Below, piece by piece: positions 1 to 58,280 of a stretch of 64,000 bases of DNA. The notes under the pieces were generated by a model. It did not search any database. It saw nothing but the letters and a program-made list of their open reading frames with translations, and was not told the origin of the DNA. The stretch is from NCBI GenBank assembly GCA_001724265.1, contig MEDY01000164.1:1-64000 (forward strand). The letters are read 5' to 3'. A program made the translations under genes and the position numbers. Source of the DNA: Rhizaria sp. SCN 62-66 (lineage: Eukaryota). Within the stretch, counting starts at the first letter, position 1, and every line of letters starts with the position of its first letter.

Positions 1-36
1 ATCGTATATAGTTCGATTTTTCCGCGGGTGCCATAC

Positions 37-423
37 CTGGGCGAGGAAACGGCGCTTGTGTTCGTCGGCGGTGCCCGGGGCGGGCCACGCGGCGAGCAAA
101 TGGGCCTGGCCGGCGGCGAGCAGCGTCTGGCAGGACTGCAGCTCAATGGGGGTAAGCAGGGCGGTGTGGGCGGCGATGACGGCCTCTGGGGCGGGAGGGA
201 AACAGCGGAGCAAAGCATGATGACAAAGCCAAGGCGAGGAGAGTGAGAGGCGTGCATACGAAGGCAAAAGCAGTCAAGACAAGTGGCATAGCGACGACCC
301 AAGGCGTAATAAAGAGCCCACATGCGTGTAAAAAGGCCGAGACAAGGAAAGAAACGTACTGGCAGCCTCCTCGAGGACCGGCGGCGCCGTCACTGCAGCC
401 GTCGGTGCTGTGAGCGTAGCCAT
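37..423 (-). CDS. USP: UDP-sugar pyrophosphorylase (USP-like), 5' exons only; gene continues beyond the left window edge
   Basis: Exon 1 423-360 (MATLTAPTAAVTAPPVLEEAA), intron 359-186 (GTACGT...CCCAG), exon 2 185-37 followed by donor GTATGG. The spliced frame gives LLTPIELQSCQTLLAAGQAHLLAAWPAPGTADEHKRRFLAQ, which matches the GQxHLxxxWPxxGxxDxxK N-terminal signature of plant/protist USP as I recall it. Confidence 0.75.
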
Positions 424-1234
424 CGGCTGCAACAGCGGCTCGGGGGCTTGGGATCTGAAGATGAGGTTAGTGCGGTGTCGCGGGACTAGAGCGGGTGCGT
501 GTCGGAGTGTGCTTTCTTGGAGCTGGGCGAGAGACGGGGAAGAGTGTGTTTGTAGGGACCGGGATTGGCAGGGAGGGGCGAGTGGCAGGAGGAAGTTGTG
601 ACGTGTAAGGGGGCGATTCTTAATGCCGAGATATGGCAACCTATATCTCAGGTTTTAGAAGTAATGTTGAATTCTAATACACTAAATAAACGTTTCTAAC
701 GATATACCACTCGTTTTTAGACGCTGACGATTGATGTAGCTAGAACGACATTGTCGTATCTTGGCCATCGCAACCCCCTTGGAGGAAGCTTCGGCTCACA
801 GTCACATCCATAGGCGAACTGAGAACCATCTCGCGACACTCCTGTGATCGTCATTCTGTGATAAAATTACATTGTTAGGTTATAACACACTAATTCACAT
901 TTATTTTCCTTTTTACGCACTCTGATTCACCCACTGCATCCTCCCCGCACCCCACTCTGCCTTGCCTTTCACACAGTCGTTGCGAGAGGCTGCTGCACCT
1001 CATCTCGCTACACGCCTGATACTCTCTGTCTCAGACTCCTTGCACTGCTCTGCCCCACACTGCTCTGCCTTGCACCTGCACCCACGGCCGCGCACCCTGC
1101 AACAGCCGCACTACCTGTGACTGTCTGCGTCTGGCGTCTGCCTGCACGGACTTCAGTTGCACTTGCTCGCTCTCGCACTCGCACTCACGCTAGAGGCACG
1201 ACAGCAACGACGACGCACACGAGCGACGACGACG

Positions 1235-4200
1235 ATGTACCAGGCGCGTCTCCCACATGCGCAGCTGCGTCTCATCGCCAGCACTGCCACCTCAACAGCG
1301 TCCGCCCTCTCACTGACACACCGCGCCAAGAATGCCACAACCACTACAACTACGACCGCCAATTAGCATTCGACTGCAACTGCGACTACGCTGCGCTCAA
1401 CTCCCCGCCGTTGTCTCTCCGTCTCTGCTTTATTACCACCGCTGGCGCCGCCGCCGCCGCTGGCGTTTCCCCCGCCGCACCTGCCCGCGTCTCTGTCCGC
1501 GCTCGCTGGCCCCACAGTCCTGACGCCGTCCCGGTTCCCCCTCGCCGTCGCGCTGGTAGCGCCGCAGCAGCCCGTCAACACGGGCGCCGTCGCGCGGCTT
1601 ATGTCCGCCTTCGGCCATGCCGAGCTGTACATCTCGCCCACCGACAGCGGCTTCGATGCGCTCTTGCCGGGGGAGATGCTCGCGGACTTTGACGGGGATG
1701 GCACTAAGCTGTCTCTCACGCTCGCCCCGCTCCACTTGCACAGCGAGGCCAGGGGAGGCGACAACATGGCTGCTGCTCCCGACACTGCGACTTACGCTGC
1801 GGCTGCTGCTGCTGCGGCTGCAGGCGTGCCGTTGAAGCTGGGTCAGTGGATCGAGCGGGGCTGGGTGACTCTGCTGCCTCATAGTAACGAGGCGGGGGAC
1901 GTGTGTGGCGACAGTGTCGACAACGACACCGACTCTGTCTTATCCGTGACTCCTTCACAGTTGCGCCCACAGCCACAGTTGCAGTCGCACTCGCCCTTAG
2001 ACTCTGCGGACTCCCTGATGCCGCCGCTGCTGCGCTTTCTCGACTTGCCCGCGTCTGCGCCCCTGTCCCCGCTGCTGCTGACGCTAGCGCGGCCAGCGCT
2101 GTTGCCGCAGCTGCTGCCGCCATCGCTGCTCTGCCCTGCTTGGCTTGCGGGCGCAGACAGGGCCTATGTAAGCAGGTACTTAGACGGCCACAGCAGCGGC
2201 GGTGTCAGTGGTGGCAGCGACGGCTTTGTGGGGGCCGTTTACGCCAGCGAGGCCACCGGCAGCGAATGCCGCCGCGGGTTCCGCGACGTCAGCGTTCTAA
2301 GGGGTAAGGTACTTTCACCCGAGCTCGCGCTGTCGAGCCGTCCGAGCGACGAAGCCCTTAGATCGTCCGAGGCGGCTAAGCACCTTGACGTCCAAACACC
2401 TATCGTCCCCTCTACCCCTTACATCAACAACAACACCACCCGCAGCGGCGGCAACAACGACGGCCATAACAGCAACGTTTTTAACCCTTTTTTCCCGCTC
2501 GCGTCGTGCTTCCTGCGCGACCGCAACGGCGTCGCCCTGGCCCCCCACAGCCCCCACGCGACGGCCTGGTCGCCGCACTGCGAGCTGGTCCTGCGCCTGC
2601 CCCTCGCCGCGCTCGCGCCAGAGGCCGCAGCCGTCGCAGTCGCCGCCGCCGCAGCAGCATCGCAGCCGCCGCCGCAGTCTCAGGCACAGCAGTCGAAGGC
2701 GCAGTCTCTGGGCTTCGTCGAGTTCGTGTGGGCGGCGGCGCGCGTGGGCGTGGCTGAGTTCCAAGGCGCGCACTTGACGCACTGGTCCCCGCCCTACGTC
2801 ACCGCTGCGCTGCACGGGAGTAGCAGCAGCAATAACAGCGGTGGCGAAAAGGGAGGCGATGGTGCTTCCTCATCAGGTTCCTGCTCGGGTGAGGAAAAGT
2901 CGGGATGTATCGCTGATAATGCAGAGTTGCAGGATGTCAACAATGAAAATAGTAATAACACGACTAACTCTAATACTTCCAACGGTTTCTTTTCTGAAAC
3001 TAGCGCTTCTGCTGGCGCTGCAGTCGACTCCCGTCCATGCTTGTCGCTGCCGTTCGCTCGCTCGCACCCGTGTGTTGCCGTCACCGCGCTGTCCTACTCG
3101 ACCGCCACCACCAACGGCTCCCGCGTGCTGCACCGCGCGCGGCTGTTTTCGCACCTGGAGGAGCTGCTCCCGTCGTTCGACGTCGTGATCGGCACTTCGG
3201 CGATGCTGCGGCCGTCGCCGGAACACCTCCGGGCCCCGGTCAGGCTGCCCTGGGAGTTTGACTGGCCCGCCATCTTCAACGCCAATACGACCTTAAACAA
3301 CAACAACAACAACAACGACAACAACGCTGTTGCTAATGAGAGCGCGACATACAACGCGGCTAGAGTTGGAGACGAGGACACGGCGAAACTTGAGTTCCAA
3401 GAGCGCATCAACACCGTAGTCGCATCCGTCCTCGCTTCCCGCTCAAACGCGAGCTCTAGCTCTGACTCGGGCTCTGACTCGGGCTCTGGCTCTGGCTCTG
3501 GCGCTGAGTCTAGCCCGCAGTCTCCGACGAGCGTCCCCCATCCCTTGCCTTCCGCCAGCCGCGCCCCGTCGGTGCTGCTGGTGCTGGGGCGCGAGTCTCA
3601 CGGCTTAACTTCGCGCGAGCTGTCCCTCTGCGACGCGATCGTCACCATCCCGGGCCCTGCGGCGTCGGGGGGCACGAACCACTCGCTTAACCTGGCCCAG
3701 GCCGCCGGCTGCGTGCTGTATGAGGCCGCGCGCGCGGAGTCTCAGTGGCGCAGTCTAAGCGCGAACAACAACAACAACAACAACAAAAACAATAACAACA
3801 ATCGCAACAAAAACAGCGGTCACGATCGTCACAACACGAGTGCCGGCTTTGTTGTAAGCCAAAGCCCTCATGCTGCTGCTACAGACGCGTCGAAGAGTGA
3901 TGCGAGGACGGCGACGGGCTGGTTTGATCCCCACGCACCTGCTGATCTAAGTACCCCCTTAGACGGCGCACTGGACCAGCCTCCTGCCTGGGCCCTTACT
4001 CCCCAGGGCTTTGACGCAACTCTTAATAGCAGCAGCAGCAGCAGTGAGAGTACCTCTAAAAAGTCTTTTTTTAAGCCCAAGACCCCGTCTCATGTTGCTG
4101 CGACTGATCCAGCTGGTGTAGACCCTGCGAGCGCCGGATTTGGCTACCCGGGCTCTGCGCTGCACTGCCCTGCGCCCGCCGCGCTGGCGGTGCCGCCGCA

Positions 4201-4939
4201 GGCCCGCGCGGCGCTGTACCGCGTCGCCCGCTCGCTGTTCGCGTTGCTGGACCCGGCGCTGCTGGTCAAGGGCGACCGGCCGCTGCGGCCGCTGCGGGGC
4301 GCCGACCCCGCGGCCGCCGACGCCGAGGACCTGCGCAGCGACCGGCTCTGCGGCCGCGGGTTTGGCACGGGTGCCGGTGGTGGTGGCAGTGTTTTGGCGG
4401 CGTCAATGGCGGCGTCCTTAGCGGCAGCGGTGGGGCCGGGGGGCGCGCTGCCGCGGCGCCACCACTTAGACCTCCGCCGCAGCGGCCTAAGTACCCCCTT
4501 AGACCAGAGCACCGCCTCTGACGCGAGCAGTGAGAGCACTAACTCCGACGACGGCGACAGTGCGGCTGCGTCTGTGTCTGTGTCGACGTCGTCGTACGCC
4601 GCCCCGCTGCCCGCCAGCCGCGGCCTGCCTTCGAACGCGCAGGGCCGTTCCCACGCCGAGGACCTGGCCGTGGCGGTGCGCAAAGTGCTGCTGTCGGTGC
4701 GGCTGTCCCGGGGCGAGTTTGGCGCCACCAAGCGGCTGTTCGAGTGGCTGGCCAAGCACGTGCGGCTCATGCGAGTTGCGGTTGCCGAGGCCGAGGCCGA
4801 GGCCGCCGCGGCTAAGGCCGAGGTTGCGGTGGCAAAGGCAGAGGCGGCTGCTGCGAAGGCCGAGACGGCTGTGGCGAAGAAGGAAGCTGATGCTGCGAAG
4901 GCTGAGCTGGCGCGGTTGAGCTAGACTGCGAGCAAGTAA
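1235..4939 (+). CDS. TrmJ/LasT-like SPOUT (SpoU) RNA 2'-O-methyltransferase with a putative mitochondrial presequence and very large low-complexity insertions; contains two in-frame TAG codons (1364-1366, 4922-4924)
   Basis: SPOUT motif 1 LAVALVAPQQPVNTGAVARLMSAFGHAELYI starts at 1541, upstream of the ORF-track ATG at 1601. Later motifs: FDVVIGTSA, motif 2 LVLGRESHGLTSRELSLCDAIVTIP, motif 3 SLNLAQAAGCVLYEA. The nearest in-frame upstream ATG is 1235. If TAG is sense, the CDS is 1235-4939 (TAA), 1234 aa. The family call is firm; the boundaries depend on the TAG interpretation. Confidence 0.8.
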
Positions 4940-7900
4940 ATGCTTGAACGACCACGTTTTGCTTTGTTTCATATTTTCTATGTCATGTTATTTAGAGCAC
5001 GCGAGATTCTTTATTTAGTTCAATCTAAACATATTTATTCATTCAAATACAGTGATGTAAAAGTGATCTTTAGCTTATTTTTCACCAAGTCGCAGAGTCT
5101 CCCACTTTTATCAACAACTCTTTTGCGTTCCGTTCGCCCAAACGTTCTGACATATAAGAATGATTTAATATAGCACAAGCTTGAGTAGATGCCCGGCAGA
5201 TAAGCTTATTGTGCATTGATGTTTACTGTTTATTCATAAATACTATCTACCCCGCCGGAATAAAACGTACTGGAGTAGGTAAGCTCATCCCCGCTGATCC
5301 ATCCGATCTCATCCGAGTAGTAAGTATCCTTTCATAAAATGGTTTCTAAAGTAAAATGATTTCAAGCATTTAAGCGTTGCGTTACTTGTCACGTCTGAGT
5401 AGTTATACGTGTGGTTTGAGTTCTGCGAAATAAACTTAGATATCTTCCTCAAACTCGCGTGCGAGCGCGTAATACGCGTCTAGGGCTCCAAGCCCGTCCT
5501 CGTCCTCCTCTGCACCACGGTCACCGGCGACAACATCAACATGGCCACTGCTCACAGTGCTGCCACGAGCATCAGTGTTGCCGTTGGCGCCGTCGTCAGT
5601 GGCTCCGCCGTGCCAGCGGGTGTTAGCAACCAGGCTGTCGCTGTTGTCGTTGCTGGAGTCGAAAGCGCGGGTCACTGCAGCAGCCTCCGCCACATCCTCA
5701 GCCTCCGGCTCCGGCTCCGGCTCGGCAAAGAGATACGAGTCTTCATACAAGTCGCTGTTATCTGCACCGTCGTCTGCGCGGGCAACAAGGGACTCCGTGT
5801 TGTTTCCACCCTCGTTATACGCAGCGTGAGCCGCATCAGCGTCAGCTTCAGCTTGATTCCTCGCAGCAGCAGCAGCAGCAGCAGCGGCGGCAGCAGCCTC
5901 AGCCTCAGCAGCATCAAGTTCAGCGTCGTTGTACTCATCAATGTAAGTACCTTGCTCCTCAGTGTAAGCATCCTGGTCTCCAGTGTAAGGTTGGTACGAC
6001 TCTTCGCCCATTGCAGCACCAGTATGATCAGTATCGCTGGGAGTGCTAACGCCGTCTTCAATGGAGGTATATGTACCCTCGTTCAAGCCATTAGAAGCTG
6101 TTGTCGCAGCAGCTGCATCAGTCTCAACCTCGGCAGCAACCTCAGCATCAGCGTTGTACATGTGATCACCAATAGCGTTGTTGTAATTCTGACCGTCCTT
6201 GGCGTAGCTAGCCTTCACGGTGGCCAACGGATCATAGGTACTGAGATCAAAGTCACGACTCGACACAACACCCTTGCTCTTGCGGCCACTATTGGAGGCA
6301 CCAGCGTTCAGACTGCTGTAGCCGCTCGAGCCCCCCATAACGCGCGCCTGCCTCGGCGTCGGCTTGATGTGGCTCGTCGGGTGGAGGTATATGACGCGGC
6401 CCGGCGACTGAGAGCCGCTGCGCCGCGCGACCGTGCCCGCCGCCGCCGCTACCGCGGACCGAGCTCGCGCCCGCGCCGCGCCGGTCAGCGCGCCCGCGCC
6501 AGAGCCCGCGCCCGCGGAAAGCACCGCCGCAGCCGAGCCGGTCAGGCCAGCGCCGCTGCTGCCCGCTGCGGAGCCCGCGGCGGAAGCGGCAGCGGCGGCG
6601 GCGGCGGCGTTGATGGCGGCGGTGAGAGAGCGCTGCCGAGACGGGTGCAGTGTGATGTTAGGGGAGATTGACGTGCGGGGGGAGACGATGAATGGCGACC
6701 GCAAGGGGTGAATGTGAGCGGCAGAGTGACCGTGAGCAGCAGCGTTGGCGTGGCCGTGAGCGCTGGTCTTGGTGCTAGTGCTGCTGAAGCTCATGGTGCC
6801 GTTGGCCTTGCTCATCGCTTGCGCCTGTCGCAAGGCCTGCGTGTGCGAGACAAGCGTACCCGTGACCATGGGTCCCTGCCCCAGGTGCCACCACGACCGG
6901 TCCGTCAGCACCGACTCTGGTCCGGTCAAAGCCACGCCAACGCCAGTCAAAGCTGCACTGGCACCGGTCAGAGCGGGCTGGTAGTCAAAGGCAGCAGTGG
7001 AGCGATTGTTGCTGTGAGCCACAGCAGCGTTGCTGGTTGAGTAGCTGTTGTGAACCAAGCTATCGTCGGTCATGGGCACGTAGTCTAAGTACTCAGCGTC
7101 TAAGCGGCCTGCGCCCGGATAAGTTCCCAGCTGCTGAGCAGCGGGAGCGTTCCGACTGGTGTTGAGCACGGCAGCAGCAGCTTCGGCCGCAATAATTGCC
7201 GCCGCCTCAGCCTCGGTCTCGGCCGCCTGCGCCCACTTGTGCGCTCGCGCAGCCTTTTCGGCAACACTTACATTCGCAGCGGGAGTGCTTACACTCGCAT
7301 TGGGAGTCAATGTGATACCGTTGTTTAAGTACTCAGCAAGATCCCACGTAGAAGCCGCCTTGCTCCCGCCACGCTGGGCCCTTAGATCCCTCTCCGCGGC
7401 CCTTAGCCCGCCGTCCCCGAGCTCACGGTCACCCAAACTAATGTTTGTCGGCTCACGGAACGCAGACTCAGGCCGCAGCCGCTGGCCCTCAGTGTAGCCC
7501 CAGTCGGATTTAAGGTTGGCCGCCTCATTGGCGAGCATATTTGCGATCTCGCGGTCCGGTGGCACAAGCGACAACGCCTCATTCACGGCAGCAGTAGCAG
7601 CGCCACCGGCGGTCGTTGTGTTGTACATGTATGCAGGCCGGCCTGTGGCCCTTAGACTGTCGACCCGGCGCACGGCGTCTGCGAGCGCGGCCTCAGAAGC
7701 GGCCGCGGCGGCGCGCGCGGCGGCCGCAGTTTCGGCGGCCGAGGAAGCAGAGGCAGCGGCCGCGGCGGCGCGGGCGGCGGCGGCAGCGGAGCGAGGGGAC
7801 AGAGGTACAGGAGCAGGGGTAGGAGCGACGGAAACAACAGCAGCAGTAGTAGCAGGAACAAAGACAGCATCATTGTTGTCCTCAGAGGTCTTAGCATCAG

Positions 7901-43820: not shown

Positions 43821-46800
43821 ATGAGTTCGTCCAAGGGCTCTTCGGAGCACCCCGAGGACGTTCGCGGTTCCGTGGACAAGGTGTACGATGACATCCGTCT
43901 CCGTGCGGCTGACTGCTTCGTCGAGCAGGGCAAGGCGGACAAGTTTCTTAAGCTTCTCGACGAAGTTCAGAACGCCCAAGTGATCGAAGACTTCGTCAAG
44001 GACCCCGAGATTCCGATCCTCTTTATCTTCTATCGCTCCGACAAGCTCTTTGCTTCCTCGTCGTTCCCCACGAACCTGAAGAAGAAGGCGCTGTACTTTA
44101 TGAAGGACAAGCACATCAAGGACTCACTTACTCCGGCGACTCTGCGCGACCACGTTTTGATCAACGAGGTGACTGAGGCGGCACTCAAGAACCTTGCTAT
44201 GATCGCTCAGGTATGTCTTACATCAAGCAAACATATTTGTTCCGTTTGCACCCATTTTCAATTTACAGATAGTATATTGCATATTCTATATGAATAGTTC
44301 TTTTTTTCTCTTCAAAAGTCTCTCTTGCTTTACCGTTACCCCGCTTTCCCTTTGCTCAATCTCTCACAGGAGGTCTACTACCCCCTGCTGGCCAACCCCA
44401 GCAACCGCGAGGGCTGGTCCGGCCCCACGTCCAAGGACATCATGCTCAAGCTCTCCTCCTTCCTCGCCTCGGTCACCATGACCGTGGGCCAGAGTAACGG
44501 CCAGACGATCCTGCCCCCGCCTCCGCCCGAGGCGTTCGACGAGGACAACATCCCCGAGAAGGAACGTGAGCACCTCCTCGAGACGTCGGTCGTGCGCTGG
44601 GCCGAGCGCATGCGCTTCGCCATCGAGCGCACTCCCGAGAGCCTGCAGGACGCGCCCGGTGGCCAGTACCCCGACCCCAGCGCCGAGGTCGACTTCTGGC
44701 TCGCTAAGGCCCAGGACCTCAAGTCACTCGAGGGCCAGCTCGCGTCGCCCACGATGCAGACGGTGTTGACGGCGCTCACGGACTTCAAGTCGCCCTTTGC
44801 GGCACAGCTCAAGGCGCTTGCGGGCGACGTCGAGCGCGCGTACGTGACTGCGGCCGAGAACTACCGCTACCTGCGCGCGCTGCAGTCGCACTTCCGCAAG
44901 ATCCGCAACACGGTCGACTTCCCTACCGTGGTCGATGCGCTGCAGCCGATGATGCACTGCGTGATGCTCGTGTGGAAAACGTGCCCGACGTACAACACCA
45001 CCGAGCGCCTCACCGTGCTTATCCAGGAGGTGTGCAACTCGCTCATCACCGAGGCCGAGAAGTACGTAAACGGCGAGCTCGTTTTCCGCCAGATCGAGGA
45101 CGAGAACGTCACTGACGCCGTGCACCTACTGCGCTCCACCGTCGTCGTCTGCCAGAAGTTTAAGAACGTCTTCTTCAAGTTCCAGGCACGCGCCGCCAAG
45201 GTGCTTCCACCCGCGCAGGCGTGGAATGTCAACACCGCCGTCGTGTTCGAGCGTCTCGACGCGTACCTGCAGCGCTTGGCCGACATCCTCGACTTCTGCA
45301 AGATCGTGCAGGAGTTCAACAAGCTGGAGAAGATCTACATCGGTGGCACCAAGGGTAACCACCTCACTGCGATGGTGCGCCAGATCTTCGCCGACTTCGG
45401 CGCCGCCGTGCGCGACTTCCAGAAGGTTCCTTACGACATCCTCGACGTCACACAGACGCGCTTCGACGACGACTTCTACCAGTACCGCTGCAAGGTCAAG
45501 GAGCTCGACGGGCGCCTCGCCGCCGTGCTGTCCTCTGCGTTCGACGACTCGGCGACGCTGACGGCACAGTTCAAGCTGCTCGACTCGTTCGAGGGCCTGA
45601 TCGAGCGCCCCATCATCAAGGACGAGCTCGACCGCAAGCACAGCCACATGCTGCGCGCGTACCTCGCCGACATCCTCAAGGTGCAGGAACACTTCCACAG
45701 CTACCGCAACACGCCGTTCATCGACAGCAACATGCCTCCCGTGGCCGGCGCAATCGGCTGGTGCCGCTCGCTGCGCAACCGCATCACCGAGCCCCGTGAG
45801 CGCTTGCAGCCGATCCTCGACGCCAACAACACCGAGGAGGCCAAGGAGGTCGTCCACTGCTACGAGGCGACGCTGGCGCAGCTGCTCGCCTACGAGTCTG
45901 CGCAGGTCGACGCATGGACCGCGGCCATCGACACGGTGCAGGAGAAGCTGCGCCAGTCTGTGCTCGCGCGCGAGAAGGACGGCCGCCGTCTCCGCGTCAA
46001 CTTCGACGACATGCTGGTGCGTCTGCTCCGCGAGGTCAAGTACCTCCGCGGGTTTGGCATCCAGGTCTCGCAGCAGGCGGCGCAGATCTACGACAAGTCG
46101 CTCACGTTCCGCCAGCAGATCGGCGCCCTCTCGCAGATCGTTAACATGTACAACGAGATCGTCGACACGCTGCTGCCGTACGAGCAGCCTCTGCTCGAGA
46201 AGGACGTCGCGCACCTCAACGAAGTGCTCGACAAGGGCCTCACCGAGTACCACTGGAAGATCCCCGCCGTGCCCGACTTCATCGCTGAGGCCATGGCCAC
46301 GGTCAAGCAGGTCTACGGCACGGTCAAGGTGATGAAGAACAACTTCGCCTTCATCGAGAAGGTCATCTTCGACTTCGCCAAAGAGCCCCTTGTGGAGCGC
46401 AAGAACAAGAGCATCTCCCCGGCCGACTTCGAGGAGAACATGAAGAAGCTGTGGGAGGCCCGCTACAAGGTGCTTCAGCAGCATCACGAGGTCTTCACGG
46501 CCAAGGTCGACGAGACGCTGAAGACGCTCAACGCCAACAAGACGAGCGGCCACTGGCGCAAGTATATGGAGGCGGTGCAGGAGAAGATCCGCGACGGACT
46601 CGTGCAGACCATCATTAACAGCATCAAGTTCCTCACGGACCAGATCGACCCCGTGGCGATCGAGAAGAACCAGACGCCTCCGATGCTCGAGATCAAGCTT
46701 GGCTTCTACGCCAACGACGTGCTGTTCAACGCCGACGAGTCTTCCTCCACGGCCACCAGCTCCGCCGCCGCCGCCGCTGCCGCCGCCGCCAACAACGGCG

Positions 46801-49800
46801 CCGTTGCTGCTGGCGGCGCCGCTGGGTCTGCGTCTGGCCTGCACAGCTCTGGCGCGGCGGGCGGCAGCAGCAGCGGCTTCGGCCTCTACGGCGGGCTCGC
46901 GCTGGACGAGAAGGGCGCGCGCAAAGCCAAACGTGACGTCTGGCTTTACATCACTGACTGGGTTGAGGGCTTCTTCGAGGTCGGCAACAAGATTTCCCGC
47001 GCCGATAACTCGACCTACATCGGCGAGCTCAAGAAGACCGACTCGATCGGCCGCAACCTGGGCGTGCTGAAGAAGTTCTCCGAGCATAACCAGCGCGAGT
47101 GCGAGGGTCTGCGCCAGGAGTACATGCGCTACGACCACCTCTACAAGCTTGACCGCAACTCCGAGTTCAACAAGTTCCTCCAGGCCGCCATCGCCTCTGC
47201 GAAGCGCGAGTCTGCCGCCAGCAACGAGTTCAAGTCCAACGGCGCTACGGGTTCCAACAACTCCAACAGCAACAGCAACAACAGCGGCGCCTCCGGCCCC
47301 GGCGGCGCCGACGGCGATGACGGCGCCGCCGGCGACGACGACAGCTTCTCTTCTGACTCCGCCGACGTGGCGCTGCCGCTGGACCGCTTCGAGGAGCGCA
47401 TCCAGTACTACAAGATGCTGCAAGCCGAGATCAGCGAGAAGAAGAACGTCGTTGAGGTTGGCTTCCTCAAGATCAACGCCGCGCCCATCAAGCAGGCGCT
47501 GTCGACGCTCGGCGCGCGCTGGATCGCAACCTACACCAGCTACCTCTACAACGAGGTGACCCGCAAGCTCACGCAGGTCGAGTCGCTCATGCGCCAAGTC
47601 TCGGACGGCGTGCAGATCGACGTCCACGATGGCGACTCCGAGACCCTCAAGCGCGTACTCGGCTACATCCACCAGGTCCGCTCTAAGGAGCGCTCGACGA
47701 ACAAGATGTTCGAGCCTCTGCGCGCGGCCGTGGCGGTGCTGAAGAAGCACGGTAAGTCGCTCGACGAGCAGGAGCTCAAGCTGCTGTCCGAAGCGCCCAT
47801 GAAGTGGGAGAGCGTTGTCAACATGGTGTACAAGGTTAAGGAGAAGGTCAACGTTCTGCAGAACGACGAAGTCGACAAGATCAAGCAAAAGGTGGCCAAC
47901 TTCAACCTCGAGCTGCTCGACTTCCGCGAGCAGTTCAAGGACGAGGCCCCGTTCCACTACGAGATCGAGGTGCACGAGGCGTACGACGACATCTACATGT
48001 TCCACCGCCGCATCAACCAGATGGAGGTCAAGGCGGCCAAGCTCACCGACCTCGAAAAGGTCTTTGAGCTCACCGTCTCCAAGCACCTCGAGATCAAGAA
48101 GAACCGCTCCGAGAACAAGCTCCTGAAGCAGATCTGGGACATGGTGGGCATCGTGCGCACCACGTTCGCCGACTGGCGCAAGACGCCCTGGAACAAGATC
48201 GACACCGACGTGCTCATCTCCGAGTCCAACAAGCTCAAGCGCCAGATCGCGCTGCTGTCACCCGAGGTCCGCTCGTGGCCCGTGTACGAGGGCCTGGTTG
48301 CTGAGGTGAAGAACCTGTCAGTGGTGCTGCCCATGGTGGACCTGCTGCACTCGCCCTTCATGCAGGACCGCCACTGGGACCAGATCAAGAAGGCGACGCA
48401 CAAGAACTTCGAGAAGGGCGAGGACTTTTGCCTGGCAGACCTGCTGGAGCTGGAGCTGCACAAGTACGTCGACGACGTCGAGTACATCGTCGAGCTCGCC
48501 AAGAAGGAGTCCAACATCGCGTCGCAGCTGGAGAAGATCGACCTCAAGTGGGTCGGTCTCAAGCTCGACTTCGGCGTCCACCCCAAGAAGGCCGACCTGC
48601 AGGTGATCCACCGCCCCGACGAGATCCTCAGCACGCTCGAGGAGCACATGTCGCAGCTGCAGAACATGCAGGGCCAGGGTAAGTACGTCGAGCACTTCAT
48701 CGACCGCGTGACGATGTGGCAGCAGCGCCTCAACGTCGTCGAGACCGTGCTCAACAACTGGCTCGACGTGCAGAAGAAGTGGGGCTCGCTCGAGCCCATT
48801 TACGTTGGCTCCATGGACATCAAGACCCAGCTGCCCGAGGACTCGAACCGTTTCGAGGAGATCGACGCCACCTGGCGCGACCTCATGCTCCACGCCGCCG
48901 AGACCCCCATGGTCCTCAACGCCTGCCAGGTACGCATTTTAGCAATTGTATCGCGCTATTTCTGAAGCATTCTTATCTTAACTATTTACATTAGCTGTTA
49001 TTCTCTGTTTTCTATCTCTATTTTCAAATTTGCTTTATTTCTCACATATAATGTCTATTTTATCTCCCTTTTTTTTTCGTTTCAGGCTCCTGGTCGCGCC
49101 GAGATGCTCGCGACGCTCAAGATCGGCCTCGAGCAGTGCGAGAAGTCGCTCTACCAGTACCTCGAGATGAAGCGCAAGTCGTTCCCTCGCTTCTATTTCA
49201 TCGCCAACGCGGCCCTGCTTGACATGCTGTCGAGCGGTGACGACCCGCACGCCGTGCAGCGCCACATCTCCGAGTGCTTCGATAACCTCCAGCACCTCGA
49301 GTTCAAGCCGCTTAAGGACGTCGACGCCTCGGCCGACCCCGCGCTCGCCAACAGCGCCAGCAACGGATCTGGCGACTCGCTCGACGGCGGCGCCATCACT
49401 GTCAGCACCGACGACGCCGGCGCCCGCACCAGCTCCGCCTCGTCCTCCAAGCGCGCCGGCTCCGCGTCCACCGGCTCCTCCTTGTCCGCCACTGCTGGCG
49501 GCGCGGCGGGTGCCGTGGCCGCGGTCAAGGAGTACTTGCGCTCGGCGGGCGCGCCGGTCAACTCGCCCGACGAGCCGCTGTCGCGCATCGCTGTCGGCAT
49601 GCACTCGAAGGAGGGCGACGAGTATGTCCCGCTGCATGAGGAGTTCCTGTGCGCCGGCGCCGTCGAGAACTGGCTTACGCGACTTGTGCAGCGCATGCGC
49701 GACACGCTCAAGGACATCCTTGCGCGCGCCAAGTTCACGGCTGACCACTGGGAGATCGAGAAGCCGCGCCACCGCTGGCTCTTTGACTACCCCGCGCAGA

Positions 49801-52800
49801 TTGCGCTGACGGCGAGTCAGATCATCTGGACCGAGGAAGTGGGCTCGCAGTTCGACGCCTTCCAGGACGGCAACGAGCAGGCGATGAAGGACTACTCCAA
49901 GGTACTTGCGATGCGCCTCGAGGAGCTCATCTCGCTCGTTCTCGGCGAGCTCGACCCCTGCGACCGTATCAAGATCATGACGCTCATCACTGTCGACGTT
50001 CACAACCGTGACGTTGTTGCCAAGCTCATCGACCAGAAGGTGACCGAGCCAAACGCCTTCACCTGGCAGTCGCAGATGCGCTACTCTTGGGAGGACCAGG
50101 ATATCACGTCTGAGGCCGCCGAGGGCAAGACCGGCGACGACCTCAAGGAGTGCTACATCAAGGTCGCCGACGGCGCGTGGGCCTACAGCTACGAGTACGT
50201 TGGCAACACCGGCCGCCTCGTCATCACGCCGCTCACTGACCGCTGCTACATCACGCTGACCCAGGCGCTGCGCCTCATCCTCGGTGGCGCGCCCGCCGGC
50301 CCCGCCGGCACGGGTAAGACCGAGACCACGAAGGACCTCGGTCGCGCGTTCGGTCTCCCCGTCTACGTGTTCAACTGCTCTGAGCAGATGTCCGTGCTCT
50401 CGATGAGCGCCATCTTCAAGGGTCTCTCGCAGACTGGCGCGTGGGGCTGCTTCGACGAGTTCAACCGTATCCAGATCGAAGTGCTGTCCGTCATCTCGAC
50501 CCAGGTCGCGACCGTGCTCAACGCTATCCGCGCCAAGCGCGAGGAGTTCGACTTCATGGGCGACATCTGCCGCCTCGTGCCCTCGGTCGGCATGTTCATC
50601 ACCATGAACCCCGGCTACGCGGGTCGTACCGAGCTGCCCGAGAACCTCAAGGCGCTTTTCCGCTCGTGCGCCATGGTTGTGCCCGACATGGACCTCATTT
50701 GCGAAAACATGCTCATGTCCGAAGGCTTCCTTCAGGCGCAGCGCCTCACGAAGAAGTTCGTCACCCTGTACTCGCTCTGCTCTGACCTGCTGTCGAAGCA
50801 GCGCCACTACGACTGGGGTCTCCGTGCCTTTAAGGCCGTTCTGCGCGTTGCCGGCGGCCTCAAGCGCGCAGAGCCCGATGTCGACGAGAACCGCATCCTG
50901 ATGCGTGCGCTGCGTGACTTCAATATCCCCAAGATTGTTGACGAAGACAAGCCCATCTTCAAGCAGCTCATCGACGACCTCTTCCCGGGGCTCGGCAATA
51001 CGGCGCGCAAGTTCGACAAGACGCTCGAGGCCGCGGTGCAGCGCATCGCCGTGCAGAAGCGCAAGCTGCAGGCCGAGGAGAAGTTCGACCGCAAGTGCAT
51101 CGAGCTCTCCGAGCTGCTCGTGATCCGCCACTCCGTCTTCGTCGTCGGCCCGGCGTCCTCCGGCAAGTCCGAGATCTGGAAGACGCTCGCCGACGCTTTC
51201 AACGACCTCGGCAAGGAGACCGTCTACGACGTCATCAACCCCAAGGCCGTGCTGAACCGCGAGCTGTACGGCTGGCTCAGCAAGACCGACTGGCACGACG
51301 GTATCCTGTCGACGATGATGCGTAACATGTCGCACAACAACGCGCCCTACACGGACCAACAGTTCTACAAGTGGATCGTGCTCGACGGTGACATCGACCC
51401 GAACTGGATTGAGTCCGCCAACTCCGTCATGGATGATAACAAGATGCTCACGCTCGTGTCCAACGAGCGTATCCCTCTCACCAAGTCGATGCGGCTTATG
51501 TTCGAGATCTCCAACCTCGATAATGCCACGCCCGCCACCGTCTCCCGTGCGGGTATCCTGTACATCAACGCCTCGGATATCGGCTCCAAGCCTTTCCTTG
51601 ACTCCTGGGTCGAGCAGCGCACCAACGACAAGGAGAAGTCTTCTCTGCTCGCGCTGCTCAACCGCTACACAACCCCGGAGTCGCTGAACGAGATCATGAC
51701 GACGTTCCAGCGCATCATCCCCATCTCGGAGATCAATCTCATCCGCACCATGTGCTACCTTCTCGAGGGCCTGCTCGAGGGCCTCAACGAGAACGCCAAG
51801 GAGCACAAGAAGAAGAACATCGTCCTCACTGCGGCGCAGGAGAAGGAGGCCTTCGAGGCCACCTTCGTCTTCGCCTGCGTGTGGGCGTTCGGTTCGGCCG
51901 TCTTCTCGGACAAGGTCAAGAACTCTCGCTCCGAGTTCTCCGAGTGGTGGAAGCGCGTCTTCACCACGGTCAAGTTCCCGGGCTCCGTTTACGACTACTT
52001 CGTCGACGACAAGGGCAAGCTCACCCCGTGGACCGCGATCCTCAACAACTACGTCCCGCCGCCGGACGCGTACCTCGTCACGCAGGTCTTCGTGCCCACC
52101 GTCGAGTCCGTCCGCCTCCGCTACCTGCTCGACCTGCTGGTGGAGAAGGAGCGCCCGGCCCTGCTCGTCGGCTCGGCCGGCACGGGCAAGACCAAGCTCA
52201 TGATGGAGTACCTCCGCGGGTTGCGCGCGCGCGACGACCGCAAGGTGTTCGCCACAGTCAACATCAACTACTACACTGACGCCAAGGCGCTGCAGAAGAT
52301 CTTCGAGTCGCATATCGAGAAGCGCGCTGGCCGCATCTACGGTCCCCTCGGCAACAAGAAGCTCATCTACTTCATCGACGACCTCAACATGTCCCAGGTC
52401 GACCTATTCGGCACGCAGAGCACTGTGCAGCTCATCAAGCAGCAGATGGATTACGGCTTCTGGTACGACGTGGCGAAGCTGGAGAAGAAGGAGATCCACG
52501 ACGTGCAGTACCTCGCGTGCATGAACCCCACCGCGGGCTCCTTCGTCGTCTCGGACCGCCTCCAGGGCCAGTTCGCTACCTTCGCGGTTATGATGCCCGA
52601 GGTGTCCGAGCTCAAGAGCATCTACGGCACCGTCATGCACCACCACTTCTCCGACTTCACCCTCGGCCAGGAGCGCGAGGTGGTCGAGCTGTGCGAGCCC
52701 CTCGTCAAGGCCACGATCGACCTCTACGACAGCGTCGCGACCAAGTTCCTGCCGTCGACCAAGAAGTTCCACTACCAGTTCAACCTGCGCGACTTGTCGT

Positions 52801-55800
52801 CGATCTTCCAGGGCCTGTGCATGTCCACCTCACGCTCTGGCTACACGCCCGCGATGATGGTGCAGCTGTGGCAGCACGAGTGCGCGCGTGTCTTCTCCGA
52901 CCGCCTCGTTGACGTCAAGGACATCCAGACCTACGACACGCTTGTCGAGTCTCGCATCCGCGACAACTTCCGCAAGTACATCCCTGCCGACGTCGGCGGA
53001 TTGTCTGGCAACGAGCTCGTCGCGCCCATCTTCGCCTCATTCGTGCACAACCCCGAGGCCGGCACTTACCTGCCGGTCGAGGACATGGGTCTGCTCAAGT
53101 CCGTGCTCACGGCCAAGCTGGAGGAGTACAACGCCAGCAACGCAGTCATGAACCTCGAGCTGTTCAACATCGCCATGCAGCACATCTCGCGCATCGTCCG
53201 CATCATCGAGAACCCCCAGGGCAACGCGCTGCTGGTCGGTGTCGGTGGCTCCGGCAAGCAGTCGCTGTGCCGCCTCGCCGCCCACATCTCAGGCTACTCC
53301 GTCGTCCAGCTCTCGGTGTCGCAGGAGTACACGCTCCACGACCTCCGCACCGACCTGCAGGAGCTGTACCGTAAGGCTGGCGTTAAGCGTATCCCTCTGC
53401 TCTTCATGCTGACCGACACGCAGATCCTCGATGACCGCTGGCTCAGCATGATCAACGACCTGCTCTGCTCCGGCAACATCCCCGGGCTGTTTAACGACGA
53501 AGACATGGACGGCATCCTCGCCGCCGTGCGCACTGAGGCCAAGGCAAAGGGCGTGTCGGACTCGCGCGAGAGCCTCACCGAGTTCTTCATCTCGCAGGTC
53601 CGCGCCAACCTGCACGTCGTGCTGTGCTTCTCCCCCGTCGGCGAGGTTTTCCGCGTGCGCTGCCGCAAGTTCCCCGGCATCATCAACTGCACCGTCATCG
53701 ACTGGTTCCACGCCTGGCCGCACGACGCCCTCGTCTCGGTCGCCAAGCGCTTCATGCAGGACATGGAGCTGGGCGGGCCCGACGCGCTCAGCGCGATCGC
53801 GGACCACATGGCGCGCGTGCACATGTCGGTTGACGACGTCTCGGTGCAGTACCGCACGGTGCAGCGCCGGTACAACTACACCACGCCCAAGTCGTTCCTC
53901 GAGCTCATCTCGTTCTACCGCATGCTGCTGGGCGAGAAGCGCTCGGAGCTGATGCGTCAGGTCGCGCGCCTGCAGAAGGGTATCCAGACGCTCAACAACA
54001 CGCACGCCGACGTCGAGCGCCTCAAGGACATGCTCGCGCAGAAGCTCATCGTGGTCGGCGAGAAGAAGGAGGCGACCGAGGAGATCATCGCCAAGATCTC
54101 TGTCGAGCGCAAGAAGGTCGAGGAGCAGCAGGCCATCGCGGCCGTCGAGGCCGGCAAGGCCAAGGCCGTGGCCGAGGTCGCGTCGCGCATCTCCGAGGAG
54201 TGCCGCCGTGACCTCGAGGCCGCGATGCCGATCAAGGAGGCCGCGCTCGAGGCCGTCAAGGTGCTCAAGTCGAACCAGCTCACTGTGCTCAAGAACCTCG
54301 CGAACCCGACTGTTGACATCACGTTTGTCACACAGGCCGTGATGATCATGCGCAACTTCCCCGGCAAGCGCACGTGGGCCAACGCTAAGATCATGATGAA
54401 GGACGTGAACCGCTTCAAGCTCGAGCTCGAGCAGTTCGACGCCACGTCCATCACCGAGGACACGCTCAAGAAGCTCCAGCCCATCCTCCAAAAGGACTTC
54501 TTCACCCCCGAAGGCATGGCTACTAAGTCCGAGGCCGCTGCCAACCTGTGTACCTGGGTTGTCAACATCGTCAAGTACAACGAAGTGTGGAAGATGATCA
54601 AGCCCAAGATGGACGCTGAGGCCGCGGCCAAGGCCGACTACGACGCCGCGGCCGCCAAGCTGCAGATCGTCGAGGACAAGGTCGCCGCCATGCAGGCCAA
54701 GCTCAAGGCCGTCACGGACCAGTTCGAGCGCAAGCTGGCCGAGAAGAACCAGGTCGAGCAGGAGGCGCGTGACTGCCAGGACCGCCTCGCGCTCGCCAAG
54801 CGCCTCGTCGACGGCCTCGCCGACGAGAACACGCGCTGGAACAAGAGCGTCGGCGAGATGACGGAGAAGTCGCGCACGCTGGTCGGCGACGTCATGCTCG
54901 CCGCTTCCTTCGTGTCGTACCTCGGCGCGTTTGACCAGGAGTTCCGCGTGTCGCTGTGGGAGAAGACATGGATGCCCGACCTCGTGGAGAAGCAGATCCC
55001 GCTCACGCCGCGCGTTGACCCCCTGCGCGTGCTCGCCAACGAGTCCGACTTCGCCAAGTGGAAGAACGAAGGACTCGCCGCGGACCGCAGTTCGCTGGAG
55101 AACGGTGCTATCATCACACAGTGCGCGCGCTGGCCGCTGATGATCGACCCGCAGCTGCAGGGCGTGCAGTGGATCCGCGGCCGCGTCAAGGGCCTCATCA
55201 CCACGCAGCAGAACCAGCCCGGCTACATCAACACCGTGGTGCAGGCTATCCAGCAGGGCCACACGCTGCTGCTCGACAACTGCCCTGAGGACCTGGACGC
55301 GACGCTCGACCCCGTGCTGTCGCGCTCCATCATCCAGCGCGGCTCGCGCAAGTTCGTCCGCGTCGGCGCTGATGAAGTTGAGTTCAACGACAATTTCCAG
55401 CTCTACCTGCAATGCAAGCTTGCGAACCCGCACTACCGCCCCGAGATCTTTGCCCAGTGCACGCTGATCAACTTCATCGTCACCGAGAGCGGTCTCGAGG
55501 ACCAACTGCTGGCCATCGTCGTCGATCGCGAGCAGCCCGAGCTCGAGGAGAAGCGCACGTCGCTCGTCCGCGCTATCAACGACTACATGGTGTCGCTGAC
55601 TGACCTCGAGACGGAGATCCTCACGCGCCTCATGGACGCGCCCCCGGACATCCTCTCCGACGTCGGCCTCATCGAGGGCTTGGAGAAGACCAAGAGCGCG
55701 TCGATGGAGATCGAGCTCAAGGTCGCCCAGTCCCGCGACCAGGAGGTGTCGATCAACGCGGCGCGTAACGAGTTCCGCTCCGTCGCCGCCGAGGGCTCGT

Positions 55801-58280
55801 GGCTCTACTTCATCCTCATCCAGCTCAACGCTGTCGACCACATGTACCAGTTCTCGCTCAACGCCTTCGTGTCCTTCTTCCGCAAGGCGATGAACCGCAC
55901 GGCCAAGGTCGACTCGCCGCAGGAGCGCGTGCGTCTGCTGCGCGAGTCGATCCGCATCGTCGTCTTCACCTGGGTCACGCGCGGCCTGTTCGAGCGCCAC
56001 AAGCTTATCTTCTCCTCGCAGCTCTGCTTCAAGCTCATGATGAAGGGCGCGCTGCGCGAGGCGTACAACCCCGACTACTACGACTTCTTTGTCCGCGCGC
56101 CGCGCAAGACCTCGAACACGGAGAAGTGCCTCGACTGGCTTACGCGCCCCTCGTGGGAGGCCATCCTGCACTTGTCCTCGCTCGAGGGCTTCGAGAAGCT
56201 CTCTAAGGAGATGGCCAACTCGCCCAACCGCTTTAAGGAGTGGTACAACAAGCCGCGCCCCGAGGCGGCGCCTCTGCCGCTCGAGTGGCGCAAGCTCGAC
56301 GAGAACGCGCCCTTCATGAAGCTGCTTATCGTGCGCGCGCTGCGCCCCGATCGCATGATCACGGCCATGGAGACGTACGTCGCTAACGCGCTACCTGACG
56401 GCAAGGCTTTCGTCGAGTGCGACGCCGGCAAGTCGTTCCTCGAAGTGCTTTCGTCCTCGCTCGACGACAGCACGACGCAGAACCCCATCTTCTTCATTCT
56501 GTCTCCCGGCGCGGACCCCGTGGCGTCGGTCGAAGTCCTCGCCAAGCGCCAGGGCATGTACGACCACCGTTTCCACCGCGTTGCGCTCGGCCAGGGCCAG
56601 GACATCGTGGCGTCACAGCGCCTCGCCGCGGGCGCACGCGAGGGTCACTGGGTGGTGCTGGAGAACATCCACCTCATGCCGGCCTGGCTTAAGGTGCTGG
56701 AGAAGATGCTCGACGACCTCGACCACGCCGGCACGCACGCCGACTTCCGCGTCTTCCTCTCAGCCGAGCCCGCCGAGTGGATCCCCATCGGCATCCTCGA
56801 GCGCTCACTCAAGCTCACGAGCGAGCCTCCGCAGGGCCTCAAGCAGAACCTCAAGCGTGCTTTCGCGACCTTCGACAAGGAGCACTTTGACTACGTTGAC
56901 AGCAAGGTTAAGAGCATCCTGTTCGGCCTGTGCCACTTCCACTCGATCATCATTGAGCGCTGCAAGTTCGGCCCCAAGGGCTGGAACCGCGTGTACCCGT
57001 TTAACACCGGTGATCTGCTCAACTCTGCCATCGTCATCCAGACGTACCTGGAGGCCGCCAACGCCAACGACGCCGTGCCGTGGAAGGACCTGCGGTACAT
57101 GGTCGGCGAGATCCTCTACGGTGGCCACATCACCGACGACTGGGACCGTCTGTTGTGCGTTACCTACCTCAAGTTCTACCTCCGCGACGAGCTGCTGGAC
57201 GAGATGGAGCTCTACCCCTTCATCGAGGCCAACTCCGAGGACCACTTCCGCTCGCCGCCCATCCTGCCCTACGAGCAGTACTTCGACTACATCGACTCGC
57301 AGCTGCAGAACGAGTCGCCCACGGCGTTCGGCATGCACACCAACGAAGACATCGCCGTCATGACTTCGCAGGCCACTATTCTCTTCAACCGCATCCTCGA
57401 GCTCCAGCCGCCCACCTCCACCACGGGCGCCGCGTCCTCCGAGGCCACGTCGGTGCAGTCGCGCGTCCAGATCGTCGCCGACGGCATCCTCGAGCGCATT
57501 AAGGGCATCAATTTCCACCTCGACGACATTGCGCAGCAGATCGTCGACGAGCGCGGCCCGTTCCAGAACGTATTCCTGCAGGAGTGCGACCGCATGAACA
57601 TTCTGATCCGCGAGATGAATCGCTCGCTGAAGGAGCTCTCACAGGGCCTGGCGGGCGAGCTGCAGATGAGTGAGCGCATGGAGCAGCTCCAGAACGCGCT
57701 CTTCTTCAACCGCGTGCCGCCGTCGTGGGAGAGTCTGGCGTTCCCCTCGGAGCGCGGACTGCTCTCCTGGGTCGAGAACCTCGTCGACCGCGCGTCGCAG
57801 CTCCAGGACTGGACCGAGGAGCCCAGCCAGGTGCCCGTCGTCGTGGCGATCGACAAGCTCTTCAACCCTCAGTCTTTCCTCACGGCCATCATGCAGAAGA
57901 CTGCGCAGAAGCAGAAACTGGAGCTTGACAAGCTCGTAATCCAGACCGAGGTGACTCGCAAGACCCCCGAGGAGGTCGATACGCGCTCGCGCGAGGGCGC
58001 CTACATCACCGGCCTCTACCTCGAGGGCGCGCGCTTCAACGTCACCTCGGGCGTGCTCGAGGACGCCGCGCCGCGCGAGATGTTCTTCACCATGCCTGTC
58101 ATCCAGTGCAAGGCCATCCTCGTCGACAAGATGGAGCGCTCGGGCTTCTACCGCTGCCCCGTGTACAAGACGGAGAAGCGCGGCGGCACCTACGTCTTCA
58201 CCGCCAATCTGCGCACCAAGCAGCCCGCGGAGAAGTGGATCCTCGCCGGCACCACGCTCGTGATGGAAACCGCCGAGTAA
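43821..58280 (+). CDS. Axonemal outer-arm dynein heavy chain, beta type (ODA4 / DNAH9-11-17 class), ~4714 aa
   Basis: Exons 43821-44210, 44370-48929 and 49086-58280 (TAA); 14145 nt in frame. DHC_N1/N2 tail; P-loops GPAGTGKT, GPASSGKS, GSAGTGKT, GVGGSGKQ; WGCFDEFNRI, FITMNPGYAGRTELPENLK, HYDWGLRA, RWPLMIDPQLQG and C-terminal KWILAG. The P1 context KDLGRAxGxxVYVFNCSEQM is characteristic of the beta class. Confidence 0.96.

Follow-up and report, generated by a model that had tools for sequence, protein, structure and literature searches.

An in-frame TAG in the N-terminal extension of a TrmJ-like SPOUT methyltransferase gene of Rhizaria sp. SCN 62-66, probably an allele-specific premature stop

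In TrmJ, motif I stands at the very start of the SPOUT domain and provides a catalytic arginine; indeed, the R23A mutant of E. coli TrmJ and the R21A mutant of Sulfolobus TrmJ, as reported in PMC4105751, are inactive, the equivalent arginine being essential in both enzymes. The present analysis concerns a gene for a TrmJ-like methyltransferase in a stretch of 64,000 nucleotides (nt) from Rhizaria sp. SCN 62-66 (contig MEDY01000164.1, positions 1 to 64,000 of the forward strand; this whole stretch is hereafter called the window), and in particular a TAG codon that lies in frame between an ATG at position 1235 (ATG1235) and motif I. Three kinds of described cases can be compared with this TAG: stop codon readthrough of the tobamovirus type, for which UAG-CAR-YYA is a stimulatory hexamer and the cases cited extend a viral replicase or coat protein (PMC3542737); the non-AUG starts that create mitochondrial isoforms in yeast, according to PMC6582344; and premature-stop or indel polymorphisms in low-complexity coding repeats.

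The locus resembles the last of these in that the indel is a multiple of a triplet, lies in an imperfect codon repeat and is seen in one strain but not in another, the rest of the gene being undecayed, and nothing was found that separates the case in the window from ordinary loss-of-function alleles. Translation of an organelle-targeted TrmJ-like methyltransferase probably begins at ATG1235, and the TAG is probably a premature stop of the window strain, situated in an indel-prone Thr/Ala-coding tract and leaving a null or weak allele. With tobamovirus-type readthrough, the window shares a UAG followed by CA, two pyrimidines opening the next triplet and a frame that is open on both sides of the stop; however, neither the sister allele nor the relatives have this stop, and it falls inside a putative N-terminal targeting peptide, whereas the cited cases concern extensions of viral proteins. 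With the yeast mitochondrial isoforms, it shares a targeting-like peptide whose coding sequence precedes the first in-frame AUG usable for the catalytic domain, but here the extension is headed by AUG1235 and the relatives also use AUG, the oddity being the stop inside the extension.

The methyltransferase gene and its reading frame

From ATG1235 on the forward (+) strand, 43 codons are open up to the TAG at 1364-1366, after which the same frame is open for a further 1185 codons, until the gene's own terminator, which is also a TAG (4922-4924, +) and is followed by AT-rich intergenic DNA. The part of this frame that runs from ATG1235 through the TAG to motif I had been reported in a preliminary description made from the letters of the window, and it was confirmed in every detail; no in-frame ATG is present between the TAG and 1601, as reported, and in-frame GTG and TTG codons are likewise absent between 1367 and 1601.

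On its profile matches, the gene is real and encodes a SpoU/SPOUT methyltransferase. Indeed, the window protein matches the Pfam family SpoU_methylase (whole-protein E-value 1.1e-15), and its best family profile is that of TrmJ/YjtD (TIGR00050), with 64.5 bits, the curated cut-off of 167.15 bits not being reached. The stretch VALVAPQQPVNTGAVARLMSAFG is present as earlier described. The alignment with TrmJ, which had been proposed as a check, places residues 60-89 of the protein following the TAG (nt 1544-1633) on positions 6-35 of TIGR00050. In this region, N115, G117 and R121, which form the N-x-G-x-x-x-R signature, are invariant in six of six family members, and so is M123. The C-terminal knot motifs, which bind S-adenosylmethionine, are also present (positions 92-142 of Pfam SpoU_methylase and 92-163 of TIGR00050), and the protein is collinear with its relatives up to a common C-terminal RSHAED block. 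The window protein is therefore like TrmJ/YjtD of E. coli and Sulfolobus in the position of motif I, in the knot motifs and in its best profile match. It differs in its score (64.5 against 167 bits), all scores of the family being far under the curated cut-off (84.5 bits for P0003 and 80.6 bits for P0004, two relatives presented below); in its domain, which is interrupted by a lineage-specific and low-complexity insert several hundred residues long; and in the addition of an N-terminal extension of ~100 residues and of a long C-terminal region with a coiled-coil-like tail. The enzyme is classed here as TrmJ-like rather than as TrmJ, since the motifs are found but the family cut-off is not attained and a large insert is present. 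TrmJ/YjtD enzymes 2'-O-methylate position 32 of tRNA, and the substrate of the window enzyme may be a different one. A phmmer search of the motif I region against PDB sequences yielded chance-level rows only (E of at least 0.8), and the eukaryotic SpoU-type clusters retrieved from the ESM Atlas, at 0.84, are under the counting level and serve as a lead only.

The gene call found in the databases (P0001, 1107 amino acids (aa), 100% identical to the window protein, on a 6,423-nt ENA contig) starts at ATG1601, the context of which is CGGCTTATGT, with C at -3. A product started there would be without the catalytic arginine, because the codon of this residue (CGG, 1595-1597) sits upstream of ATG1601; no family profile was matched by the fragment starting at this codon. 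The earlier claim that a start at ATG1601 loses an essential motif is thus borne out by the TIGR00050 match, by the invariance of the motif in six of six members and by the inactive mutants reported in PMC4105751. The annotation would accordingly have to be corrected, the database model being too short and devoid of the catalytic arginine, with the real start probably at ATG1235. A word-index database search with the whole protein matched only P0001, the gene call of the window itself. The 43-aa upstream peptide as query gave nothing at E up to 10 among longer database proteins (27 candidates), so that no database protein starting at ATG1235 was seen, which is weak evidence. An exact 50-nt search of genome contigs gave 0 matches.

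The last + strand ATG preceding ATG1235 is at 734, so that ATG1235 is the first ATG in the leader. A run of 500 nt without ATG has a P of ~0.006 in mononucleotide shuffles, and the GC skew of this interval (735..1234) is negative; it is probably the ATG-free, C-rich 5' untranslated region of the gene. ATG1235 is found in the context ACGACGATGT, with A at -3, and the SPOUT domain is in the same frame. It is probably the true start codon. Between ATG1235 and 1601 there are two other ATGs, at 1257 and 1332; neither shares the frame of the SPOUT domain, and their own frames comprise 19 and 63 codons, respectively.

In its composition, the segment that extends from ATG1235 to the first strand of the domain is like a targeting peptide. 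Aspartate and glutamate are absent both from the 43 aa encoded at 1235-1363 and from the 58 aa encoded at 1367-1540, as had been noted earlier; the first 40 residues comprise 4 R+K, 0 D+E and 14 S+T; and according to heuristic composition measures, the maximum 11-residue hydrophobic moment of the extension is 0.57, with 0 D+E in its 101 residues. Furthermore, it contains an RRCL/S site, which would fit a cleavage motif with arginine at -3. This extension of ~100 residues is a putative organelle-targeting peptide, the mitochondrion being the likeliest destination. Of the presequence claimed in the preliminary description, a single N-terminal extension that spans the TAG, starts at ATG1235 and has a targeting-type composition was thus recovered, while the targeting itself is read from composition only.

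An allele without the TAG, and the relatives of the gene

Logan contigs of four sequencing runs (X4, X5, X6 and X9) were mapped on positions 1-5200. X4 is an independent run of 2025, with a contig ~99.5% identical to the window and a library kind that is not on record. It behaves as DNA, because its depth extends over all 30 bins, including the AT-rich intergenic spacer 577-1259 and the 3' spacer, and because its contigs keep intron 186-359 of the upstream gene, which is spliced out in a contig of X9. Record 4 of X4 (898 nt, depth 5.2 of 5.2) covers 1303-2227 with 4 substitutions over 895 aligned nt, and it is without the 30 nt found at 1341-1370 in the window, so that the TAG at 1364-1366 is gone. 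The placement of this deletion is ambiguous by 1 nt (start at 1341 or 1342). The loss amounts to ten codons, so that ATG1235 and the SPOUT domain still share one frame; over the stretches covered by contigs, the X4 frame from ATG1235 runs into the enzyme without a TAG.

The 30-nt gap reflects an indel in the genome rather than a very short intron, because the segment contains no GT and neither of its boundaries is splice-site-like. The segment resembles the imperfect ACN/GCN codon repeats on both of its flanks (the scores are reached by 73/2000 and 17/2000 shuffles), and such an imperfect repeat tract is the kind of place where slippage indels arise. A second indel of X4, of 16 nt at 1190 (1190-1205), is situated in the GAC/GACGA-rich leader upstream of ATG1235; its length is not divisible by three, in agreement with an untranslated leader. 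Seven in-gene differences between X4 and the window were listed, of which, by hand count, two are synonymous, including one in the motif I Asn codon at 1579, and five are non-synonymous, all of these in insert regions; 21 further differences lie beyond this list.

In the RNA data, poly(A) contigs of X6, located at 1632-2153 and 2754-3405, show the X4-type variants at 1990 and 1992. Their evidence thus concerns the other, X4-type strain, and the TAG is outside their cover; X9 and X5 also have no cover at 1219-1392. The depth in the bin 1393-1566, the very large depth at 3307-3654 and the many joints with sides of 20-30 nt were ignored, their source being GC-rich simple repeats of other organisms.

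The scan of JGI metagenome contigs revealed a single related locus (L001), whose protein, P0002, shares 57% identity with query residues 59-122 of the window protein in tblastn and 56% in BLASTP. In L001, the frame begins with an AUG 82 residues ahead of the VALVAPQQ strand and contains no stop. A HMMER pass with the L001 protein over 1.84 billion representatives gave only six proteins at E up to 0.001, and a search with P0003 added neither further members nor names. Three relatives, namely P0002, P0003 and P0004, have an AUG start and an extension of 73-90 residues before VA(V/L)ALVAPQQ, with no stop; their first 40 residues contain 10, 8 and only 1 R+K, respectively. Of the others, P0005 represents a fragment of 175 aa, and P0006 begins directly with the domain. 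The gene family, of which very few members have been sampled, is a eukaryotic branch of the SPOUT superfamily; its proteins are TrmJ-like, with a large insert that splits the domain, and on the composition of their N-termini they are apparently organelle-targeted.

Across the family, motif I is located several hundred residues from the rest of the knot domain, and the conserved RSHAED block is followed by a coiled-coil-like tail. L001 has an intron of the form GTACGT...ATAG at 1674-1762, after the PWELAD block, where the gene of the window is continuous, which constitutes an intron presence/absence difference. An 'ARLP' match between the extensions of the window and L001 was considered as homology and dropped, the score of the two extensions being reached by 500/2000 shuffles.

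Interpretation of the TAG

In the reading preferred here, the precursor of a TrmJ-like SPOUT RNA 2'-O-methyltransferase would start at ATG1235 with an organelle-targeting extension of ~100 residues, and in the window strain the 30-nt segment 1341-1370 of the imperfect ACN/GCN tract would bring in the in-frame TAG; the allele of the window would then presumably be the derived one. Ribosomes starting at the first AUG would terminate after 43 codons. Those reaching ATG1601 would have to pass the out-of-frame AUG1257 and AUG1332, and their product would be devoid of the catalytic arginine, so that the window allele would be null or strongly weakened, either as a recent lesion or as a segregating polymorphism, while a near-identical strain and the relatives would keep the uninterrupted frame. 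The undecayed downstream frame would imply that the lesion is recent, or that it is covered by another allele or by leak.

Several observations weigh against this interpretation. The TAG-less allele is known from one Logan contig of one run, at a depth of 5.2, and the listed X4 pieces leave 1260-1302 uncovered, so that an open frame is not established there in X4. Contigs drop rare variants. In the source runs X1-X3, the word share of 0.99 does not discriminate between the alleles, as the 30 nt would be spanned by only ~6 of the 480 sampled words. The RNA contigs leave 1219-1392 uncovered, so that the transcript structure over the TAG is out of their reach. The relatives would lend the extension a support that is architectural only and not residue by residue: the similarity between the extensions of the window and L001 is not significant, the score being reached by 500/2000 shuffles. 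C is the leakiest base after a stop, and it is C that follows the TAG of the window. Finally, the 1185 downstream codons are fully open and collinear with the relatives, which fits a very recent lesion and a still-expressed gene equally.

In functional readthrough, a near-cognate tRNA would decode the UAG often enough to provide the window strain with the full-length, organelle-targeted enzyme. Readthrough was the inference of the preliminary description, and it was not upheld: we regard it as unlikely, although a low-level leak through the UAG-C stop may occur. On either side of the TAG, the frame is open and resembles a protein sequence, no other in-frame AUG precedes the essential motif, the downstream gene shows no decay, and the stop is followed by C, with the first two bases of each downstream triplet fitting UAG-CAR-YYA. 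However, the stop is missing from the X4 allele and from all three relatives with extensions, which is not what a conserved recoding site would show. Its 3' context, CAU UCG, agrees with the tobamovirus-type hexamer at 4/6 positions, the third base of each triplet failing, and no downstream RNA structure was detected in the 120 nt from the TAG (1364-1483; fold z of 0.61, with 144/200 shuffles at least as good). The stop of the window is thus unlike a programmed readthrough site both in its conservation among relatives and in its lack of the stimulatory hexamer or of a 3' structure. In addition, TAG is a normal stop in the window: 0 in-frame TAG codons were counted in the 14,961 codons of 11 long open reading frames, against 136 in the other two frames. 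It is somewhat less likely still that UAG-C readthrough proceeds at a useful rate, with a leaky stop in the enzyme's own targeting peptide throttling the supply in one of two natural alleles; if true, these alleles would differ in leaky-stop throttling of an organelle RNA methyltransferase. The same counts make it extremely improbable that TAG is a sense codon in the organism of the window. Nothing beyond the TAG at 1364-1366 itself speaks for such a variant code, although an in-frame TAA five codons past the terminal TAG (4922-4924) leaves that terminator indecisive. With the standard code, Pfam matches the domains of the dynein heavy chain (~4,660 codons), which is included in the above count, from one end to the other, and no tRNA gene was found in the window, hence no suppressor tRNA to point to.

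Initiation downstream of the TAG would treat the 43-codon frame as an upstream open reading frame and have translation begin, by leaky scanning or reinitiation, at a near-cognate codon in 1388-1523 (for example CTG1391, with A at -3), the part with RRCL/S being kept. Downstream of the TAG and ahead of the first strand of the domain, there are indeed eight in-frame CTG or ACG codons, of which five have a context of middling strength, the segment after the TAG is itself basic and without acidic residues, and there is a precedent in the yeast non-AUG mitochondrial isoforms of PMC6582344. None of the eight codons, however, combines a purine at -3 with G at +4, the AUGs at 1235 (A at -3), 1257 and 1332 (A at -3) stand ahead of or among them, and in the relatives and the X4 allele the frame simply begins with an AUG; non-AUG initiation is improbable. 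An assembly or consensus error in the window contig, concerning the 30 nt or the TAG, seems doubtful to a similar degree. The region is an imperfect repeat, and the only independent sample looked at, X4, is without the segment; against this, the consensus quality of the window is high elsewhere, the dynein heavy chain of ~4,660 codons being free of frameshifts, the gene call P0001 has exactly the 1107 aa expected on the TAG allele (although it possibly derives from the same sample as the window), and assembly errors do not usually take the form of a 30-nt insertion of non-repeated sequence. Removal of the TAG by a cryptic intron is very unlikely. Around the TAG, the frame is preserved by only two GT..AG pairs (hand-derived), 1248-1517 and 1269-1517; with either of them the extension would be mostly lost, and their donors are GTCTC, whereas the introns of the window and of L001 have GTAYG or GTAAG and no GTAYG occurs on the + strand at 700-1700. 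The preliminary description had named, as a case that would refute it, an intron ending at AATTAG; this case was not found, as the AG of the TAG (1365-1366), taken as an acceptor, does not share a frame with any of the four GTs that precede it, and the X4 allele does not have this AG. Spliced contigs were not observed, although the RNA contigs miss 1219-1392. The contrast with real introns that had been drawn from GC content stands in that no GTAYG is present and GC around the TAG is 0.58-0.60, but is less sharp than was claimed, since GC is 0.33 in the intron from 48931 and 0.53 in intron 186-359. For in-frame stops known from a single metagenome contig, the case suggests that other strains should be compared before recoding is proposed.

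Feature coordinates and other observations in the window

The features of the methyltransferase gene are collected in Table 1.

Table 1. Positions of the features of the TrmJ-like methyltransferase gene in the window
Feature	Position	Strand	Basis
Probable leader, ATG-free and C-rich	735..1234	+	Last upstream ATG at 734, shuffles, GC skew, 16-nt X4 indel at 1190
Probable start codon	1235..1237	+	First ATG of the leader, in frame with SPOUT domain, X4 allele, AUG starts in relatives
First 43 codons of extension, basic, Ser/Thr/Ala-rich, no acidic residue	1235..1363	+	Composition counts
30-nt segment of the window, absent in X4, holding the TAG	1341..1370	+	X4 record 4, flank-repeat shuffles
In-frame TAG, context AAT TAG CAT TCG	1364..1366	+	Frame reading
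Other 58 codons of extension, with RRCL/S site and eight near-cognate codons	1367..1540	+	Composition, codon scan
SPOUT motif I region, first strand and N-x-G-x-x-x-R	1544..1633	+	TIGR00050 positions 6-35, family alignment
Motif I arginine codon CGG	1595..1597	+	Codon list, alignment; equivalent arginine catalytic in TrmJ
Internal conserved Met used as start in P0001	1601..1603	+	M123 invariant in family
C-terminal SPOUT knot motifs, residues 731-785 of the 1185-aa frame	3557..3721	+	Pfam SpoU_methylase positions 92-142; TIGR00050 92-163
Terminator of the gene, TAG	4922..4924	+	Frame reading, AT-rich DNA next

Two further observations concern low-complexity parts of the gene. At 3307-3654, a simple repeat coding for (GSGSDS)n draws contigs of unrelated organisms: the summed contig depth reaches hundreds to thousands in all four runs, many loose ends are found at 3466-3511, and the depth there is uninformative for the gene. 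At 1993-2631, the RNA run X6 and the DNA run X5 have a joint in which 637 nt are skipped and 9 other letters intervene, its shorter side being of only 22 nt. It may represent a deletion in the low-complexity insert of a strain, or else a repeat of another organism that matches by chance.

The window derives from a GC-rich eukaryote of bioreactor and wastewater metagenomes, with spliceosomal introns that have donors of the GTACG type. It also encodes proteins of flagellated cells, namely a dynein heavy chain, CEP104, a protein with a CH-like sperm-protein domain (Pfam CH_2) and an Alg9-like mannosyltransferase. In the divergent gene upstream of the methyltransferase gene, the intron at 186-359 (minus strand) has the donor GTACGT and GT..AG borders; X9 joins 185 to 360, 174 nt being skipped. 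The dynein heavy chain (44298-58280, +; ~4,660 codons) has one AT-rich intron, which starts with GTACGC at 48931. Its GC content at third codon positions is 0.91-0.92, much above that of the SPOUT gene (0.75).

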